This document shows positions 21,220-31,457 of a stretch of 64,000 nt of DNA, in pieces. Positions within the stretch are counted from its first letter, which is position 1. Each line of letters starts with the position of its first letter. Made by a program: the position numbers and the translations under genes. Source of the stretch: Squalus acanthias (taxonomy: Eukaryota); assembly GCA_030390025.1 (NCBI GenBank), contig CM059431.1, positions 110,176,001 through 110,240,000 on the forward strand, given 5' to 3'. The notes under the pieces are model-generated. The model did no database searches. It saw nothing but the letters and a program-made list of their open reading frames with translations, and had not been told where the DNA came from.

Positions 21220-22916
21220 ATATAAATATTTTTACCTGACTAGAATTTTTTTTTTACTTTCTCTAACTGCAACATTTCATTCCACAAGGATTTAAACTTA
21301 CAAAAGCACAAGCGCTAACCCATTTTTTTCCTTAACAATCAACATGCCTTTTGCAATTAAACCGGTTTTGCTCTCTGTCCACCTACTTTGATAACCGACT
21401 TTAAATAAAACATCTGCTGGCTTTCTCTCATCACTTGTTTCAGGTCTTTGATGGTTTATCTGCCTATTCTTGGGGGGGGTGGGGGGGTGGGGGAGAGAAG
21501 AAGGAAGAAGAAGAGGAAGAGAATAGCTTCTGGTTATCCCAACTGTTTATTTTCTTCTGGCTGCCCCTCCACCCAGCTACCCTGCATCCCTCCCCCATTG
21601 AAATGCAAAATTTCCCTACAGAGTGAAGATTAAATGATCTGTTGCCAGCCCAGTGCAACTGTATATTGCAGTCACTAGGAGCTGTGCAAGAGTAGGTTGG
21701 GTTGCCATGACCCGTTCTTTTCCTCTCCCTCCTAGAGGAGCCCCCCCGCCCCACCTTTACTCGGCGCCTCTCCCATGTAGGGATACCCCCAATCCCAATA
21801 GCCCACCGAATTAATGTCAAACTTATGTTACTGGGGCCTACTTTTATAAAGTGAAACTATCAGTACTCTCCAGGCTAGCCATCTGCATACTGTAAATTGT
21901 GTTTCTAGATATTTTATTGGGCATTTTTTTTTGTCCTAAAGGAAAAGCACGACTGGTGAAGCTAAATAATTCATCACTGATCTTTTTAGCCTACTTCTCT
22001 GAAACATGCAGAGCAATGCTTATAAAATGTGATTGTGTCACAGTTGTTCATATGTGTTTGATTGAGGTAATTGAGATGCTAAAATAACCCAGACACAATG
22101 GCCGGAATTTTCTGGGGTGGTAGCTGGTGCGATCGGAGGTGGGTCGGGTGGGAAAGTTGTTATTTTTGGGAGCGGGTCGGGAACCCGCTGTCCTCCTGCT
22201 CCCACGCACCTTTCCCCCAGGCGGGTCTGTCAGCACGGACCTGACCTGACTGGCAGAGGCGGGCGACCCAATTTAAATTATTAGTAACTAGTTGTCAGAC
22301 CCTTAAGAGTGGTTTTAACCTCACCTTTTAAATTTAATTGGATGGCCACAGGAAAACAAGCTGCTCAGGAACCACATCTATGAACCTGAGGCGGGAGTTC
22401 AGTGGCCATTGCTCCAGCTGATTAGTTGACAGCATGAAATGTACTATAAAAGCTCCCACCTGACAAATAATCACTTTTCTCAGCAGAAGCTGTTTCTTAC
22501 TGCATTCCCAGCACAGATTCCGGTGAGGAATCTATAATACTGTCCCTGTCTCCACCATCTGCTTTTGCTCACTTGTGACTTGTGACGGACGCGGTGACAA
22601 CACTACTCTATCTCACGTTGCACCCACGCTGGTGCTGGGTGCGCTTATGTCTGGTGACAGTGCGCCTTCAGAGGCTGGAGGTTCCTCTGAGGAGTTGTCT
22701 TCCTCTGCCTCCTGGACAGTGGGAGGGGGCTCTTGATGGACCTGTGGGAGAGTAAAGAGATGAGTTAGATATGTCATATGAAGAATGGGTACAGATACCA
22801 TTATGCATATGATGACAATTCAGTGACTGCTGACATCAGTGCCTATATGAGTGACTGATGTATGCCATGTAGCTGTATGATATGTAATTCTGCAACCAGG
22901 TTTCTGAGATGTCCCC

Positions 22917-23110
22917 TGTGGTAACACAATACAGCTTCCTGTGACTCGAACTTTATTACATCACTTCCTGTGATTAGTCCAGGATAAATACTGGGCTGAT
23001 CAGTTGGTTCCTGGAGAGGCATAGAGTAAGACCTCTTTTGTATGTAGCACCTTTTTAGTTGATTAAAGCTTACTTTAAGTTCACCACGCGTAAGGCTCAT
23101 TCTTACGACA
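22917..23110 (+). repeat. 5' LTR
   Basis: TGTGG..GACA; identical to the 3' LTR. GATAAATA at about 22983 and ATTAAA at 23062-23067. Confidence 0.95.
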
Positions 23111-23188
23111 ATTTAATCAACTTTGAAAAACTTCGCACTCAAACTTTTTGGACGAACTCGGAACTAAGGATCCAGGGAATCACCCATC

Positions 23189-26100
23189 ATGGAAAACATC
23201 CTTAAACCATCGCGTCTTGACTTGGACCCAAACACCCCAGCAGCCGGTAAGGTGTGGAAACACTGGTATCGCACGTTTGACAATTTTCTCGAATATTGCA
23301 AGGCTGATGATGACTCAAAATTGCGGATACTCATCAACTGTGTCACCCCGAATGTATTTCAGTATGTCGAGGAATGGGGCAGTTACGAGGAGGCAATTCG
23401 GACGCTTAAAAGACTATATACTAAGACACCGAATGAGGTCTATGCCAGACATCTACTAGCTACAGCCCAACAAGGGCCAGAGGAATCCATTGATAAATTC
23501 CTCCAAGAGCTTCGCAGACTTAGTATGGACTGTAACTTTCAGGCGGCCTCAGCTGAGCTGTACCGTGAAGAAATGATCCGTGATGCTTTCATCTGCGGGC
23601 TTGCCTCCCCATTTATACGCCAGCGTCTACTGGAAAGTAAGACACTTGAGCTTCAGAGAGCTTATGACATGGCTTGCTCTCTAGATCTGGCAAAAAGAAA
23701 TGCAGACCTTTATACAGTGCCCAGACCTCGGTCTGCTGCCTTAACTACAGTCAGGCAATTTAAGAGGCCACAGGTGAACTCTATTAGGGAGGACTTTATC
23801 CCTGACGATCAATCTGATGACTTCACTGATGAAGAGGATGATGACCCCACTGTGGCAGCCTCTTGGCAATCTAAGAAATGCTTCTTTTGTGGTGATGAGT
23901 TTCACCCTCGGAAATTCTGCCCTGCTCGCAATGCGTTTTGCAGTCATTGCAACAAAAAGGGTCATTTTGCAAAGGTTTGCCTATCAAGAGCCTCTACGAG
24001 GGCTTATCAAGCTAAGTCCTACCGAACTGCCCCGGTAAGGGCCTATCAAGATGTTCCGGCTAAAATCTATCGTGCTTCCTCTCGGGTTTTCTCTCGAAGA
24101 AACACACCTAGAGTTTCAGCCACTCTTTGTGCAACGACACCAATTACAGCTGCTTGTCCTCAGAACCTATTCCATGCAGCTACAAAAGCATCAATTAATG
24201 GACATACTTTAGATGCCTTAATTGACTCAGGTAGCACTGATAGTTTCATTAGGGAACAGATTGTTGCAGAGTTAAAGCTACATGTTTTCCCATCGGACCA
24301 GGCAATTGCGATGGCTCAGTCATCACTTAATACCAGAATTTCTGGCTTTTGTATGGTTGAAATAACACTTAATGGTCACAGGTATCCCTCCACCCGGCTT
24401 TCGGTGCTCAAGGACTTATGTAGTGATCTTATCTTAGGGCTAGATTTTCAAAAGCAGCATAAGAAGCTCACCATTGAGTTCAGCGGATCCAAACCTGAAC
24501 TCACTATTTCTAATATACGACCTCGATTACCGTTCTGTGCATTGTCAGCAGCTTCACTGGATGAACCCTCACTGTTTACCAGTATCCCTCCTCGATGCAA
24601 ACCGATTATAACAAAGTCACGACGTTTCAGTCAGGAAGACCAGTCTTTTATTGCGGCTGAGATTTCTCGGCTTTTAGCAGAGGATATCATGGAGCCTTGT
24701 TCATCGCCATGGCGCGCCCAGGTCGTTATTGTTAAGAACCCTCTACAACCTCACAAGAAACGGCTGTGCATTGACTATTCACAGACCATCAATCAATATA
24801 CGGACTTGGACGCATACCCATTGCCGCGCATCGATGATATGGTTAATAAACTGGCTGAGTACACGGTGTTCTCAACATATGATCTGAAAAGTGCCTATCA
24901 TCAGGTACCCTTGAAGGTCTCAGACAAGCAGTATACGGCCTTTGAAGCCAATGGACGGCTGTATCAATTTCGTCGCCTCCCCTTTGGGGTCACTAATGGA
25001 GTGGCTGTCTTCCAGCGAGCAATGGATGACCTGGTCAAACAGGAAGACTTAAAGGATACGTTTCCTTATCTGGACAATATTACTGTCGCAGGTCGCAATC
25101 AGCGGGAACATGACGCCAATCTCCAACGATTTTGGGATGCACTCCAGCACCGTAATTTGACATTAAATGCGGCTAAATCCATTGAGTCACAACCAACCAT
25201 CAACATCCTTGGCTATTGTGTGGGCAATGGCATCATTAAACCTGACCCTGAAAGGCTTCACCCACTCCAAGAACTCCCGCCACCTAAGAATCCGGCCTCC
25301 TTGCGCCGGGCCCTCGGCCTGTTTGCATACTATGCTAAATGGATTCCTAACTTCTCGGACCGAATCCAACCTCTACTGAAGGCCAGCACATTCCCACGAG
25401 ACACAGCGGCTGTTGCAGCCTTTAACCTCCTGAAAAAACAGTTGGAGAAAGCGGCTCTTCACTCCATCGATGAGAGTCTTCCTTTTGTCGTTGAGTGTGA
25501 TGCCTCGGAGGTGGCGATCTCGGCCACTCTGAATCAGGAAGGTCGTCCGGTGGCATTTTTGTCCAGGACTTTTCAAGGGGCTGAGCTACATTATCCTCCA
25601 GTCGAGAAAGAAGCTACAGCCATCATAGAGGCAGTACGGAAGTGGACTCATCTCCTAGCTCGCCAGCACTTTACCTTAATCACGGACCAGCGATCGGTCG
25701 CCTTCATGCTCGATAATCGAAAACGGACCAAAATTAAAAATAATAAAATCCAGCTTTGGCGGCTGGAATTGGCCTCTTTTGGTTACACCATCCACTATCG
25801 ACCTGGCAAGGAGAATGTGGCTCCGGATACCCTCACACGAGCATTCTGCTCCGCCATGGCACCCTCTACGCTCGTAGACATCCATGATGGGTTGTGTCAT
25901 CCGGGCGTTACTCGCATGCTACACTTCGTGCGGTCCCGAAATCTCCCATTCTCTACCGGGGATGTAAAGAAGATGTGCTCGGACTGCAGAGTCTGTGCGG
26001 AATTGAAACCTCAGTTTTTCCGCCCCTCGGGTGGTATACTCATACATGCGACCCAGCCAATGCAACGGCTTAGCATCGATTTTAAGGGGCCGTTGCCCTC

Positions 26101-27139
26101 TTCAACTCGCAACACTTATCTATTGACCATGGTCGATGAGTATTCCCGTTTTCCATTTGCCTTTCCCTGCCCCAATATGCTGACGACCACGGTTATCAGC
26201 TGCCTTGAGCAGGTATTTGCTTTCTGTGGCATGGCATCCTATGTTCATTCGGATCGGGGCCCTTCTTTTATGTCAGGAGAACTCAAGGCCTATCTCTCGG
26301 AACGGGGTATTGCTGCCAGCAGAACGACGCCTTATCATCCGGTCGGGAATGGGCAAGTCGAGCGTTTTAACGCTATCATCTGGAATGCGGTACGTCTGGC
26401 TTTGAGATCTCGGGGCCTACCCAACCAGCAATGGGAAGCAGTACTTCCAGACGCATTACACTCCACACGGTCCCTCCTTTCGACCGCCACAAATACGACG
26501 CCTCATGAACGGTTCTTCCGATTTCAGCGTCGCTCATCCTATGGGATATCTCTCCCGTCGTGGCTGACTGCACCGGGACCAGTGCTACTCCGAAGATATG
26601 TTCGGGCGTCTAAGAATGACCCCCTGGTAGATGAGGTTGAGCTCACTGACGTCAACCCTACCTACGCCTATATTCGGTATCCTGACGGTCGGGAATCTAC
26701 CGTGTCATTGCGGGATCTGGCTCCCTGCCCGCCGAAACATAGAGGGACACCAGGGGATGATATTGTACCAGGCACATCTCTGGGCTCGCCAGGTGCCTCT
26801 CATCACGATCTGGATCTGACGCCGGCTGGTACCTCACTCCAGCGTGCCGACCTGGGGCAGACTGACTATGAGCCCGTCGGGGCTCGCACGCGCAGCCACG
26901 ATCCACCCTGTACCATACGCTCGGAAACGGATCTGCCACAGCCCTGCCCGACACCCGTTCGGGCACCAGTACACAGTCAGGATCGTCCTGACCCCTCACA
27001 GAGCGGGCTGGATCACTCGGACTCTGGTCCACGGCCCGCGGCGGGTAAACGGGCTAGGGGCCCTCTACCGCTACGAGAACCCAAACGGGTGCGGCTCTCC
27101 CTCATCCAGCGGCTACGAAATGGAGGGAGAATGTGGTAA
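23189..27139 (+). CDS. Gag-Pol polyprotein (gag zinc knuckles, aspartic protease, RT, RNase H, integrase), single 1316-aa ORF
   Basis: CFFCGDEFHPRKFC / CSHCNKKGHFAKVC; LIDSGS; RLCIDY, YDLKSAYHQ, LPFGV, YLDN; VECDAS..EKEA..TDQ; HDGLCH..CRVC, IDF..HSDRG..NGQVER. Gypsy domain order. No env or chromodomain seen. Confidence 0.95.
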   Translation: MENILKPSRLDLDPNTPAAGKVWKHWYRTFDNFLEYCKADDDSKLRILINCVTPNVFQYVEEWGSYEEAIRTLKRLYTKTPNEVYARHLLATAQQGPEESIDKFLQELRRLSMDCNFQAASAELYREEMIRDAFICGLASPFIRQRLLESKTLELQRAYDMACSLDLAKRNADLYTVPRPRSAALTTVRQFKRPQVNSIREDFIPDDQSDDFTDEEDDDPTVAASWQSKKCFFCGDEFHPRKFCPARNAFCSHCNKKGHFAKVCLSRASTRAYQAKSYRTAPVRAYQDVPAKIYRASSRVFSRRNTPRVSATLCATTPITAACPQNLFHAATKASINGHTLDALIDSGSTDSFIREQIVAELKLHVFPSDQAIAMAQSSLNTRISGFCMVEITLNGHRYPSTRLSVLKDLCSDLILGLDFQKQHKKLTIEFSGSKPELTISNIRPRLPFCALSAASLDEPSLFTSIPPRCKPIITKSRRFSQEDQSFIAAEISRLLAEDIMEPCSSPWRAQVVIVKNPLQPHKKRLCIDYSQTINQYTDLDAYPLPRIDDMVNKLAEYTVFSTYDLKSAYHQVPLKVSDKQYTAFEANGRLYQFRRLPFGVTNGVAVFQRAMDDLVKQEDLKDTFPYLDNITVAGRNQREHDANLQRFWDALQHRNLTLNAAKSIESQPTINILGYCVGNGIIKPDPERLHPLQELPPPKNPASLRRALGLFAYYAKWIPNFSDRIQPLLKASTFPRDTAAVAAFNLLKKQLEKAALHSIDESLPFVVECDASEVAISATLNQEGRPVAFLSRTFQGAELHYPPVEKEATAIIEAVRKWTHLLARQHFTLITDQRSVAFMLDNRKRTKIKNNKIQLWRLELASFGYTIHYRPGKENVAPDTLTRAFCSAMAPSTLVDIHDGLCHPGVTRMLHFVRSRNLPFSTGDVKKMCSDCRVCAELKPQFFRPSGGILIHATQPMQRLSIDFKGPLPSSTRNTYLLTMVDEYSRFPFAFPCPNMLTTTVISCLEQVFAFCGMASYVHSDRGPSFMSGELKAYLSERGIAASRTTPYHPVGNGQVERFNAIIWNAVRLALRSRGLPNQQWEAVLPDALHSTRSLLSTATNTTPHERFFRFQRRSSYGISLPSWLTAPGPVLLRRYVRASKNDPLVDEVELTDVNPTYAYIRYPDGRESTVSLRDLAPCPPKHRGTPGDDIVPGTSLGSPGASHHDLDLTPAGTSLQRADLGQTDYEPVGARTRSHDPPCTIRSETDLPQPCPTPVRAPVHSQDRPDPSQSGLDHSDSGPRPAAGKRARGPLPLREPKRVRLSLIQRLRNGGRMW

Positions 27140-27202
27140 TACAATACAGCTTCCTGTGACTCGAACTTCATCCTGGCCTCCTAATCTTTTGGGGGGGGAG
27201 AA

Positions 27203-27396
27203 TGTGGTAACACAATACAGCTTCCTGTGACTCGAACTTTATTACATCACTTCCTGTGATTAGTCCAGGATAAATACTGGGCTGATCAGTTGGTTCCTGG
27301 AGAGGCATAGAGTAAGACCTCTTTTGTATGTAGCACCTTTTTAGTTGATTAAAGCTTACTTTAAGTTCACCACGCGTAAGGCTCATTCTTACGACA
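27203..27396 (+). repeat. 3' LTR
   Basis: Identical to the 5' LTR and preceded by the PPT. Confidence 0.95.
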
Positions 27397-28422
27397 TCCC
27401 CCTCTCTCCATCTCCCACCTCTAGCTGCTCGGCAACTCCAGATATTTCTAAAGCAGCCTCCTCTGCTGTTGTAAGGTTTGCAAATGATGGCGGGCCACCG
27501 CCAGTTCTCCCCCCACCCTCTTATTTTGGGCTCTCTTTTCCTGCAAGGAGAGAAAGAAGAGAAGTTTGAGTGAGAGTGATGGAATGAGTGTAAGGAATGG
27601 ATGGGTTAGATCTTTAGAGGGTGACTATGGTGGAGTGGGGTGCCAAAGCCAAGTGGCCTCTTTGTGTGTTGTTAGTTGGTATGATTGATTGAGGGTGAAT
27701 GTGAGGGGTGGTTAGTGAGATGGGGGTGTGATAATGGAGATAGAGAGAGAGGGGTGGGTGGATGTGCAAGGTATGTTGGTGTGAGTAAGGATGTGCAGGA
27801 GTAGGGTAGGGAAGGCAGAGTGATGGGGATGTGATAAGAGGCACAGCAGGACAAAGGTAAGTGTGGCTTTGTACTCACATTTCCTGATCTAATGAGATCA
27901 TTGAAAGGCTTGCGGCACTGCACCCAGGTCCTCCTGACCACATCCCTGCTGGTGACCTCCTCTGCAATCTCCAACCAGGCTGTTTTGGTATCCTGGGGAG
28001 CTCTCTTCCGCTCATTGGAAGGGAAGAGGGCCTCCCTGTGTTTTCTGACTCCCTCCATAAACATATGGAGGGAGTCATCGGAGAACCTGGGTGCAGCCCT
28101 CTGCCTCTGTGCAGTGATTGTCAGTGTTTGCAGCACTCCAATGCTGTAGTGCACTGATAGCACTATGTTAGATTGACATTCAAATCCAATGTGGCCATGG
28201 TCACTTTAAAGATCCCGGCTGAAAATGCGTCATCGATGACGTCACCAGACCTGCACCATTTAATTGGGTCGAGTAACACGCAGGGCGGGCTTAATAGGCC
28301 CTATTAAGGGAAAGTCATTTTCAGCAGTGGGATGGAGCCAGCAGCAGGGTCGCGACCTGTCATGGCCACAGCCCGCACCGGACCTGTGCAAGTAGGCAAA
28401 ATTCCGGCCAATATTCCTTGAA

Positions 28423-29526: not shown

Positions 29527-31015
29527 GGCCGGAATTTTTCAGCGGGGGCGTTTGGAGGTGGGTCGGCTGGGAAAATGGTTTTCTTTTGACAGCGGGTAGG
29601 GAACCCGCTGCCAATCCGCCTCCACGCTAGTCTCCCAGATGTCGGGTCTGTCATCGCAGAACAGACCCAACACCAAGCGGCGAGGGAGGCAATTGACATC
29701 ATTGGATACATTGTTAAGTGCCAATTAAGTAGTATTTTAAGCTTACCTTTCAATTTTTCATGTTTCCCCATGGCTTCCCCGCTGCTTGGGGATCAGGTCA
29801 GGTAAGGAGGTCGGGTGTTCTGTCAGCATGTGATGATTTCTTTATTTGACAGCTGCAAATGGTCTATAAAAGCTTCCATTTCATAGGTCTTCACTTTGCA
29901 AGGTTAGAAGCTGTTAATTACTGCATTTGGAAGACGTATTGAGCTTTATGCAGCTTGCAAGTGTTTGGAGCTAACTCTCTATCCAGTATCACCTCATTGG
30001 AACAACCTGTCTCACCATTGACAGATTGCTTCTGTCATCTCAACCTCACCTGCCATCTATTCCATCAGCATGGGTGCCCTTTATACTCTCTCACCTTGGT
30101 CCTCAGAATCCCACCACGATCAGCCCCAACACCAGCAGCACCAACAACACCAACCTTCTCCACAATCAGCTGGTGCTGCACAGGACACAGGGCATCAGCA
30201 CCCGACCACATTGCTGCCCGGGATGCCAGGGATGGCCTCACTATGAGCATATTTACTTCACTTGATGCTGTACACCCTGGCTGCCACATGATGCACCAAG
30301 TTGGCGCCACCCCACACCAACACCATAAAGCATCCCTACAATGTTCAAGCCATTCACACTCATCACCATTGCGGGGGGTACCGTTATGTCTCACCATTCA
30401 CTGCAACTCACTAAGCCACTTCCAAAGGTGCACGCAAATCTGTCCAAGAATGCAAAGTGTTGAAAATAAAGGTTTCAATGTTTGACAACATATTAACAGA
30501 AACTTTACATGAACATTGCATAAAACACCCAAGTGCCTACCCTTGTGTGTTGTTAGTTGGTATGATTGCACTAGGATGAGGGTGAGTGTGAGGGGTGGCT
30601 AGTGAAATGGGGAAGTGATAATGTCGATAGAGAGGGATGGGTGGAGGTGCAAGGTAAGTTGGTGAGAGTAAGGATGTGCAGGAGTAGGGTAGGGAAGGCA
30701 GAGTGGTGGGGATGTGATGAGTGGCACAGCAGGATGAAGGTTGAGATGTCTTTGCAGTAACGTTTCGTGATCTACTGAGATCATTGAAAGGTTTGCGCCA
30801 CTGCAGCCTGGTCCTCCTGACCACATCCCTGCTTGTGTCCTCCTGTGCAAGGTGCAACCAGGCTGTGTTGGTGTCCTGGGGAGGTCTCTTTTGCCCATGG
30901 GAAGGGAAGAGAACCTCCCTGCGTGCTGTGACTCCCTCCATAAGCATGTGGAGGGAGTCATGGGAGAGCCTGGGTGCATTCGTGCACCTCAGTGCAGTGC
31001 TTGGCAGTGTTTGCA
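29527..31015. mobile_element. Harbinger deletion derivative (left TIR, transposase N-term stub, Myb exon 1), right end truncated
   Basis: Starts GGCCGGAATTTTT; colinear with 52795-54507. Minus Myb exon APRLSHDSL..RTRLQWRKPFNDL. Confidence 0.8.
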
Positions 31016-31457
31016 GGCCCTTCATTAAATTAGCTTGTAAATCTCAACCCAGTTCCTAGTGAGTGTCTGCTCCCCTGCACAAAAACTGCTCACAAATAAA
31101 TTAGCTGTTTTACTCAGGCCATCAGGCAGCTTATTTAGGAAATGGAACAATTAATACTGGTGCAATAGGGGGTGATCTTCTGTGTTTGGAATTAAAAGAT
31201 CCTGTTGGGGCAAAGCAGTGGGGAGCTTTACCCTGCACTTAGCTGTTCATACCTGTCTTGGGAGAGCTTGATGCTAATACGGGTTGTCAAGGGTGGAGAA
31301 TTTTAACTGGTATTAAAAGCCAACCATGCTGGATAAGTGCTGAGATCACAGGATGAAGAAAATGGGCGGGGAGGGGGCAATTGGGCTGTTGACGTAAATA
31401 CAGTGCAGACTAATTTTGTCTTTTGCAAGGTATGTTATGTTTTGAAACAAATATATA

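Follow-up and report, generated by a model that had tools for sequence, protein, structure and literature searches.

How does a Gypsy element that has no TGG behind its 5' LTR begin its reverse transcription? The question is raised by one such element in the window, the whole stretch of 64,000 nucleotides of Squalus acanthias DNA that was analysed. To our knowledge, self-priming is proven only for Tf1-type chromoviruses, and the original prediction was that this element, too, is primed by its own RNA. The element has the LTRs, target-site duplication, polypurine tract and PR-RT-RH-IN domain order of a Ty3/gypsy LTR retrotransposon (Table 1). The predicted coordinates are exact: the 5' LTR is followed by a single A and an 11-mer, with no TGG. 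This 11-mer, TTTAATCAACT at 23112–23122, was confirmed in the sequence as the exact reverse complement of AGTTGATTAAA at 23057–23067 within the LTR (hereafter the arm). The LTR end and the spacer A23111 are placed independently of the pairing, because the two LTRs are 100% identical and flanked by a 5-bp target-site duplication.

Table 1 Features of the Gypsy element and of its putative priming region (positions are those of the window).
Feature	Position	Strand	Remark
5' target-site duplication TCCCC, 5 bp	22912–22916	.	partner at 27397–27401
5' LTR, 194 nt, TG...CA	22917–23110	+	100% identical to 3' LTR
TATA-like box GATAAATA	22983–22990	+	74 nt upstream of the arm; would underlie a rival upstream start
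Initiator-like TTAGTT	23055–23060	+	RNA start predicted at A23057 from the sequence
Putative self-primer (LTR arm)	23057–23067	+	final six bases are ATTAAA
Junction hairpin GCTTA/TAAGT	23068–23080	+	begins at the first base past the arm; candidate landmark for the cut
U5 stem-loop CGTAAG/CTTACG	23089–23107	+	arms 23089–94 and 23102–07
One-base spacer, LTR end to primer site	23111	+	A in 22, T in 2 and G in 1 of 25 families
Putative primer-binding position TTTAATCAACT	23112–23122	+	complement of the arm, not of a tRNA CCA end
Intact single gag-pol ORF, 1316 aa	23189–27139	+	no chromodomain, no env
Double zinc knuckle, aa 231–264 of the gag-pol ORF		+	from sequence
Protease, RT (YLDN at aa 627), RNase H and integrase domains of the gag-pol ORF		+	from Pfam and sequence
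Polypurine tract and first 40 nt of LTR, extra copy	27122–27171	+	provides the ORF stop codon
Polypurine tract	27191–27202	+	directly abuts the 3' LTR
3' LTR	27203–27396	+	arm present, primer site absent downstream

We surveyed copies of the element in the 3.7 Gb genome, scoring 40 candidates out of 900. All 40 match the first 384 nt of the element at ~100%, and the start of the LTR and the junction of the 5' LTR are the same in 30 of 30 fetched copies, with different flanks. Thus, the family is young, and the element is a recently amplified, multi-copy Gypsy. A second family of the same lineage is found in this genome (L111, G000:C6, ~147.9 Mb), which has 229-nt LTRs, shares 82% RT-RH identity with the element and carries the same 11-mer plus one extra pair. 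The duplicated segment at 27122–27171 sits just before the true polypurine tract and is probably family-wide, since an open frame of 1315 aa is kept by most scored copies. The motif in RT reads YLDN and not YXDD (25067–25078), although the family has recently amplified. Among 120 homologues the motif is xxDN in 80, xxDD in 32 and unscored in 8, and a literature search for YLDN together with retrotransposon found no paper. The predicted RNase H acidic residues D771, E814, D833 and D880 are invariant across 33 proteins.

The fold predicted for 384 nt is a three-way junction comprised of the 11-bp duplex, the hairpin at 23068–23080 and the stem at 23089–23107. Pair probabilities are 0.84–1.0 for 10 of the 11 duplex pairs and 0.43 for the innermost one. 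The internal CGTAAG/CTTACG stem of the original prediction is well formed here (pair probability 0.98–1.0) and did not hold as a property of the lineage, since a terminal stem of at least 6 bp is present in 5 of 25 families. A proposed extension of the duplex by TTTTT/AAAAA proved weak, with only 3 pairs in the fold at about -1.2 kcal/mol. A variant LTR contig, for which 11 differences are listed, changes the T run of this extension and has one difference in the hairpin loop and none in the arm or the stems. Both the extension and the U5 stem were rejected as essential features of the lineage.

The hairpin abutting the arm, which was absent from the original prediction, has pair probabilities of 0.74–0.96 in this element. 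Across the lineage, 17 of 25 families have a stem of at least 4 bp abutting the arm; the null is 4.7 +/- 1.8, with a maximum of 11, and the same count at other offsets gives 6–11 families. The abutting hairpin permits G-U, which is found at its first pair in 8 of the 17 families. Side helices of the Tf1 type were not enriched relative to shuffles (p 0.33 and 0.27) in a simple longest-stem test that could miss weak helices.

We compared the pairing across 80 fetched metagenome loci together with the second family of this genome; a generic scan contributed L042 and L078. Wherever two LTRs exist, the LTR end was set independently of the pairing; in an anchored test of 29 loci, candidates for the LTR end were picked by a T-rich rule. 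An anchored duplex (one base past the CA of the LTR end, score at least 8) was found at 24 of these 29 gag 5' ends. Of the five failures, three (L094, L095 and L103) seem to be decayed members of duplex-bearing families; the other two, L089 and an additional L076 site, fail without explanation. As a held-out set we used loci from a scan of prokaryote genome bins, evidently with eukaryotic contigs: 13 were fetched, any CA was allowed, and all five loci with a gag 5' end have 13–15 perfect pairs at +1. In the family counts given here, each family has one representative. Redundant sisters (L031, L034, L063, L037, L085, L094 and L147) were left out, as were L089, L095, L103 and the additional site of L076, which failed the anchored test.

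Across 25 diverged families, the duplex begins at a fixed distance of 1 nt past the CA of the LTR, and the loop spans anything from 24 to 68 nt. Positions 1–11 of these families (275 positions) comprise 268 Watson-Crick pairs, 1 G-U pair and 6 mismatches. At positions 6–11 of 19 families, 110 of 114 pairs are Watson-Crick, where permutation gives 70.6 on average and 92 at most (0/20000), a value inflated by kinship. Each of positions 4–13 exceeds permutation and no signal is left past position 16 (25 families, again inflated by kinship); as the families are related, all permutation values overstate independence. The site hexamers at positions 6–11 are of 13 different kinds in the 19 families, each following its own LTR arm. 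The pairing reaches 13–19 bp in many families, so the length of the primer is not fixed at 11 nt. None of the 25 families has TGG after the LTR. In 12 non-lineage two-LTR Gypsy elements with TGG-type sites, which served as controls and include a Mag-type element from the same genome, the best self-duplex is 4–7 bp. Compensatory covariation of the two 11-mers among relatives, a check that came with the original prediction, is therefore strong and lineage-wide, and pairing of the LTR arm with the primer site is a feature of the whole lineage.

The right end of an LTR is defined by where the minus strand is initiated. A duplex pinned at +1, with a variable loop and outer end, is thus what a self-primer predicts. 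The covariation, the fixed +1 register, the scarcity of G-U pairs and the TGG-bearing controls without a duplex all uphold the self-priming part of the original prediction, and its further claim of an independent origin did not gain the same support. On these comparisons of sequence, self-priming in some form is very probable.

We propose that the reaction proceeds as in Tf1, in which bases 1–11 of the RNA anneal to the site and RNase H cleaves between base 11 and base 12 (PMC7175516, in the portion sampled; the mechanism is also described in sections of PMC5341516). By this analogy, transcription would begin at or near A23057 and the first ~11 bases would fold back onto 23112–23122. A cut at the 3' end of the arm (23067/23068), a point that the abutting hairpin may mark, would then free a 3'-OH, probably through the action of RT/RNase H. 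From there, RT would copy the 44-nt U5/R remainder and jump to the 3' end of the RNA. We lean towards this exact Tf1 geometry, with the minus strand primed by the element's own RNA, with less assurance than towards self-priming as such.

Plus-strand synthesis would subsequently copy the primer, rewriting the primer site as the exact complement of the arm, and such rewriting could explain why the covariation is so strictly Watson-Crick. Sister copies fit this order of events. L031 has 4 private substitutions in 239 nt relative to three sister copies that are ~98% identical; two of the four are the two sides of one pair, and the change in the arm is present in both LTRs. In L037, the arm is changed in both LTRs and the primer site has no matching change. 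Changes in this order would be expected where the 3' R supplies the LTRs and the primer rewrites the site afterwards. Strict selection for perfect pairing could yield a similar pattern of covariation. The natural mismatched and compensated variants offer a ready test of a primer that templates its own binding site.

The outer edge of the arm resembles an initiator. Arm position 10 is G in 19 of 19 families, preceded by A or T and a T-rich run upstream, and in this element TTAGTT is close to the initiator consensus. The main rival to a start at the arm is a longer leader, in which the RNA begins ~30 nt below a TATA-like box (~23013–23016) and the last 11 bases of a ~50-nt fragment pair with the site. 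Each of the two families of this genome has such a box, at 74 and 90 nt upstream of the arm, which would put the RNA start ~40–60 nt further upstream than the arm, and alternative start sites are documented for Tf2 (PMC5341516, as sampled). However, most relatives have no TATA-like box, with weak TA-repeats instead of the box in 2 of 17 families outside this genome. Conservation peaks at the outer edge of the arm, where G10 is invariant and the T-run lies upstream, and copying of a long primer would create a tail without a pairing partner at the second jump. We consider the longer leader unlikely.

A second alternative takes the primer from the other end of the RNA: the copy of the arm in the 3' R of the same or a co-packaged RNA would pair end to end with the site and be cut at the same bond. 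The arm is present in both LTRs, copies that sequence alone cannot distinguish, and covariation and register fit this arrangement equally well. Yet the local 5' fold forms with a probability of >0.8, the jump would require an RNA start upstream of the arm for homology, and the parts of the literature sampled hold no precedent. Priming from the 3' R is accordingly judged improbable.

It had also been suggested that the duplex buries the ATTAAA poly(A) signal in the 5' LTR only, suppressing premature polyadenylation. In the strongest form of this idea, the duplex is a regulatory hairpin that masks the signal and something else primes. AATAAA or ATTAAA indeed ends 12 of 25 arms, whose AAA-then-RCC context presumably resembles that of retroviral poly(A) signals. 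The canonical hexamer is, however, absent from the other 13 arms, and it is present in the open loop of 4 families and in the loop only in L032 and L036. Masking would need neither the fixed +1 register nor the exclusion of G-U, and no alternative primer site is evident. As only 12 of 25 arms end in the hexamer and 4 families carry one in the loop, masking is not a general function; as the main role of the duplex it was rejected on these counts, and it may be secondary at most, as a side effect or as the origin of the arm. We give little credence to a hairpin that masks and does not prime.

Self-priming has also to be set against a primer supplied by the host: the site would bind half of a tRNA or some other small RNA, and its match to the LTR would be incidental. 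Half-tRNA priming exists in copia elements (PMC6317226, PMC10886601, both as sampled), but the survey in the sampled part of PMC6317226 found it in copia only, and the 13 site hexamers in 19 families each track their own arm, which makes a host primer very improbable. No tRNA gene lies within the 64-kb window, and an Rfam tRNA search for the host listed 63 matches. Chance complementarity, to which the AT-richness of the 11-mer might lend itself, is refuted by the comparison of relatives, which shows conservation and covariation. Shuffling speaks against it as well: 5 of 5000 dinucleotide-shuffled LTRs matched the first 20 nt past the LTR over 11 nt, without the +1 register being required.

We then placed the lineage among Gypsy elements using domains and RT-RNase H trees. 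No Chromo or SH3_Tf2-1 domain was detected in any of 33 lineage proteins at E 0.01, and most of 120 homologues carry the double zinc knuckle. The trees contain 41 and 32 rows out of 57 extracted, with ERV rows omitted and outgroups labelled by domain order, Pfam hits and primer sites, not by named references; Tf1 and sushi are absent from them. The lineage forms one long branch with support of 100/100. Chromodomain-bearing rows together with Ty3-capsid rows form a separate branch (100/99), the two Mag-type rows another (99/96), and CsRn1-type and Gmr1-type rows are also apart from the lineage in both trees. An RT phylogeny thus puts the lineage on its own branch, away from chromovirus-type rows (Tf1 and sushi being absent). 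The backbone of the trees lacks resolution. Sisterhood of the lineage with chromoviruses (p 0.38) or with Mag (p 0.39) is not rejected in AU tests, nor is its joining with one fungal row (p 0.13).

The domains and the tree support the view that this is not a chromovirus. Membership of Tf1/sushi was rejected, given the missing chromodomain, the separate RT branch and the side helices that are not enriched. The gag had been described as Mag-like, with a double zinc knuckle and no chromodomain; the knuckle and, by Pfam, the lack of a chromodomain stand, and the Mag affiliation falls. Identity to a TGG-primed Mag-type element of the same genome is 26%, the lineage has its own branch, and a TGG-type tRNA primer site is found in 0 of 25 lineage families versus 2 of 2 Mag-type controls, so that Mag membership, too, was rejected. 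The proposal of an independent tRNA-free priming lineage therefore holds for a self-priming lineage, and the AU values do not establish its independence. From the sequences, an origin independent of chromovirus self-priming is likely but unproven.

Homologues with names are, among vertebrates, from cartilaginous fishes and otherwise from cnidarians, a mollusc, crustaceans, a moth, nematodes and a tunicate. The ESM Atlas gave only gag clusters without names, the best PDB match is Ty3, and scans of viral contigs with the lineage alignment and a Mag-type protein as queries confirmed no relatives.

The tunicate protein is the nearest non-host row in the lineage tree. Cigr-1 has 245-bp LTRs and one ORF of ~1210 aa. 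These sizes, similar to those of the lineage, and the tunicate row suggest that the lineage may be the Cigr clade, which we compared by description only and offer as a lead. The clade (Cigr-1 of Ciona; Gypsy-Cigr in RepeatMasker) is described as a distinct clade from a tunicate, molluscs and annelids in the parts of PMC6238403 and PMC8556966 sampled.

Comparison with known systems indicates what is shared and what differs. Tf1 and Tf2 of S. pombe, Tj1, Tosmo/Tcry and Tf1/sushi elements are likewise Ty3/gypsy with an LTR segment complementary to a site after the 5' LTR, and Tf1/sushi elements share the ~11 nt pairing and the lack of a tRNA site (PMC7175516, PMC4600332, PMC10085805, each as sampled). 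They differ in having a chromodomain, whereas our lineage has none and has a double zinc knuckle and a separate RT branch. Tf1 requires two side helices in a three-duplex 'pretzel' fold (PMC10085805, as sampled), in place of which the lineage keeps the abutting hairpin. Its hosts include cnidarians, molluscs and arthropods, where chromoviruses are not found according to the sampled part of PMC2774666. In plants, self-priming has been predicted for Tcn1 (gypsy) and TAR (copia) from at least 10 bp of pairing within 0–5 nt of the LTR (PMC6317226, as sampled), a rule to which the element also conforms. Both are plant elements, unlike this lineage, and Tcn1 is a chromovirus related to Tf1/sushi while TAR is a copia. 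A single ORF, two CCHC knuckles and short LTRs are shared with Mag elements (A, B and C clades), represented here by L132 and L190. These two, Mag-type by architecture and not by named references, have a TGGCGACGAGG site, no self-duplex and a separate branch. Skipper of Dictyostelium is also a Gypsy element without a TGG site, but it carries a stretch of pyrimidines and lacks any complementarity to its LTR (PMC5006619, as sampled).

The sources sampled, among them PMC6317226, PMC10085805, PMC13524379 and PMC2864245, connect self-priming among Gypsy elements with Tf1/sushi and Tcn1; among copia elements, they predict it for TAR. For the present lineage, our search of parts of the literature, with subscription papers and Repbase notes outside its scope, found no report of self-priming. 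Some Repbase entries may call certain marine-invertebrate Gypsy families self-primed. The mechanism is a known one, here in a lineage for which it seems undescribed. We suggest only tentatively that tRNA-free self-priming is animal-wide in this lineage, from cnidarians to cartilaginous fishes, is independent of Tf1/sushi, uses a different fold with a site rewritten in each cycle, and is undescribed for the lineage. If true, animals would harbour a second Gypsy lineage that primes itself, one family of which is still amplifying in a vertebrate, and independence from tRNA would have arisen or survived more widely than described. This would also bear on hairpin priming as the ancestral state of LTR elements, as proposed in the sampled part of PMC3601003. 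Such elements would offer no target for silencing by 3' tRNA fragments, and annotation tools that depend on a PBS would under-call them.

Several further elements and features were observed. Searches of this genome with SH3_Tf2-1 and H2C2 returned mostly ERV-like and Mag-type elements, and one with the sushi-type gag domain DUF4939 had no match, nor did its control. The Mag-type family L132 (G000:C1, ~6.13 Mb) is young and multi-copy, its ORF is 1335 aa long and its primer site is of the TGG type. L133–L141 and several of L112–L131 are ERV-like, with gag, pol and downstream frames, most copies seen being interrupted. L192 (G004:C160) is a Ty3-capsid Gypsy without a chromodomain that nests within the chromovirus branch, where it groups with proteins of rotifers and fungi. 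The prokaryote bins of L142–L214 (G001–G004) hold many eukaryotic Gypsy elements, with 115 and 151 RNase H matches in two of them, which indicates host contamination. In L031, L035, L040 and their sisters, the primer site reaches the gag start codon and leaves a leader of 0–5 nt, so the duplex could also affect translation. Downstream of the element, the window contains a repeat with open frames on the minus strand, in two copies that are ~86% alike (27672–28205 and 30537–31043); its open frames look Myb/SANT-like, and the repeat may be of Harbinger type.
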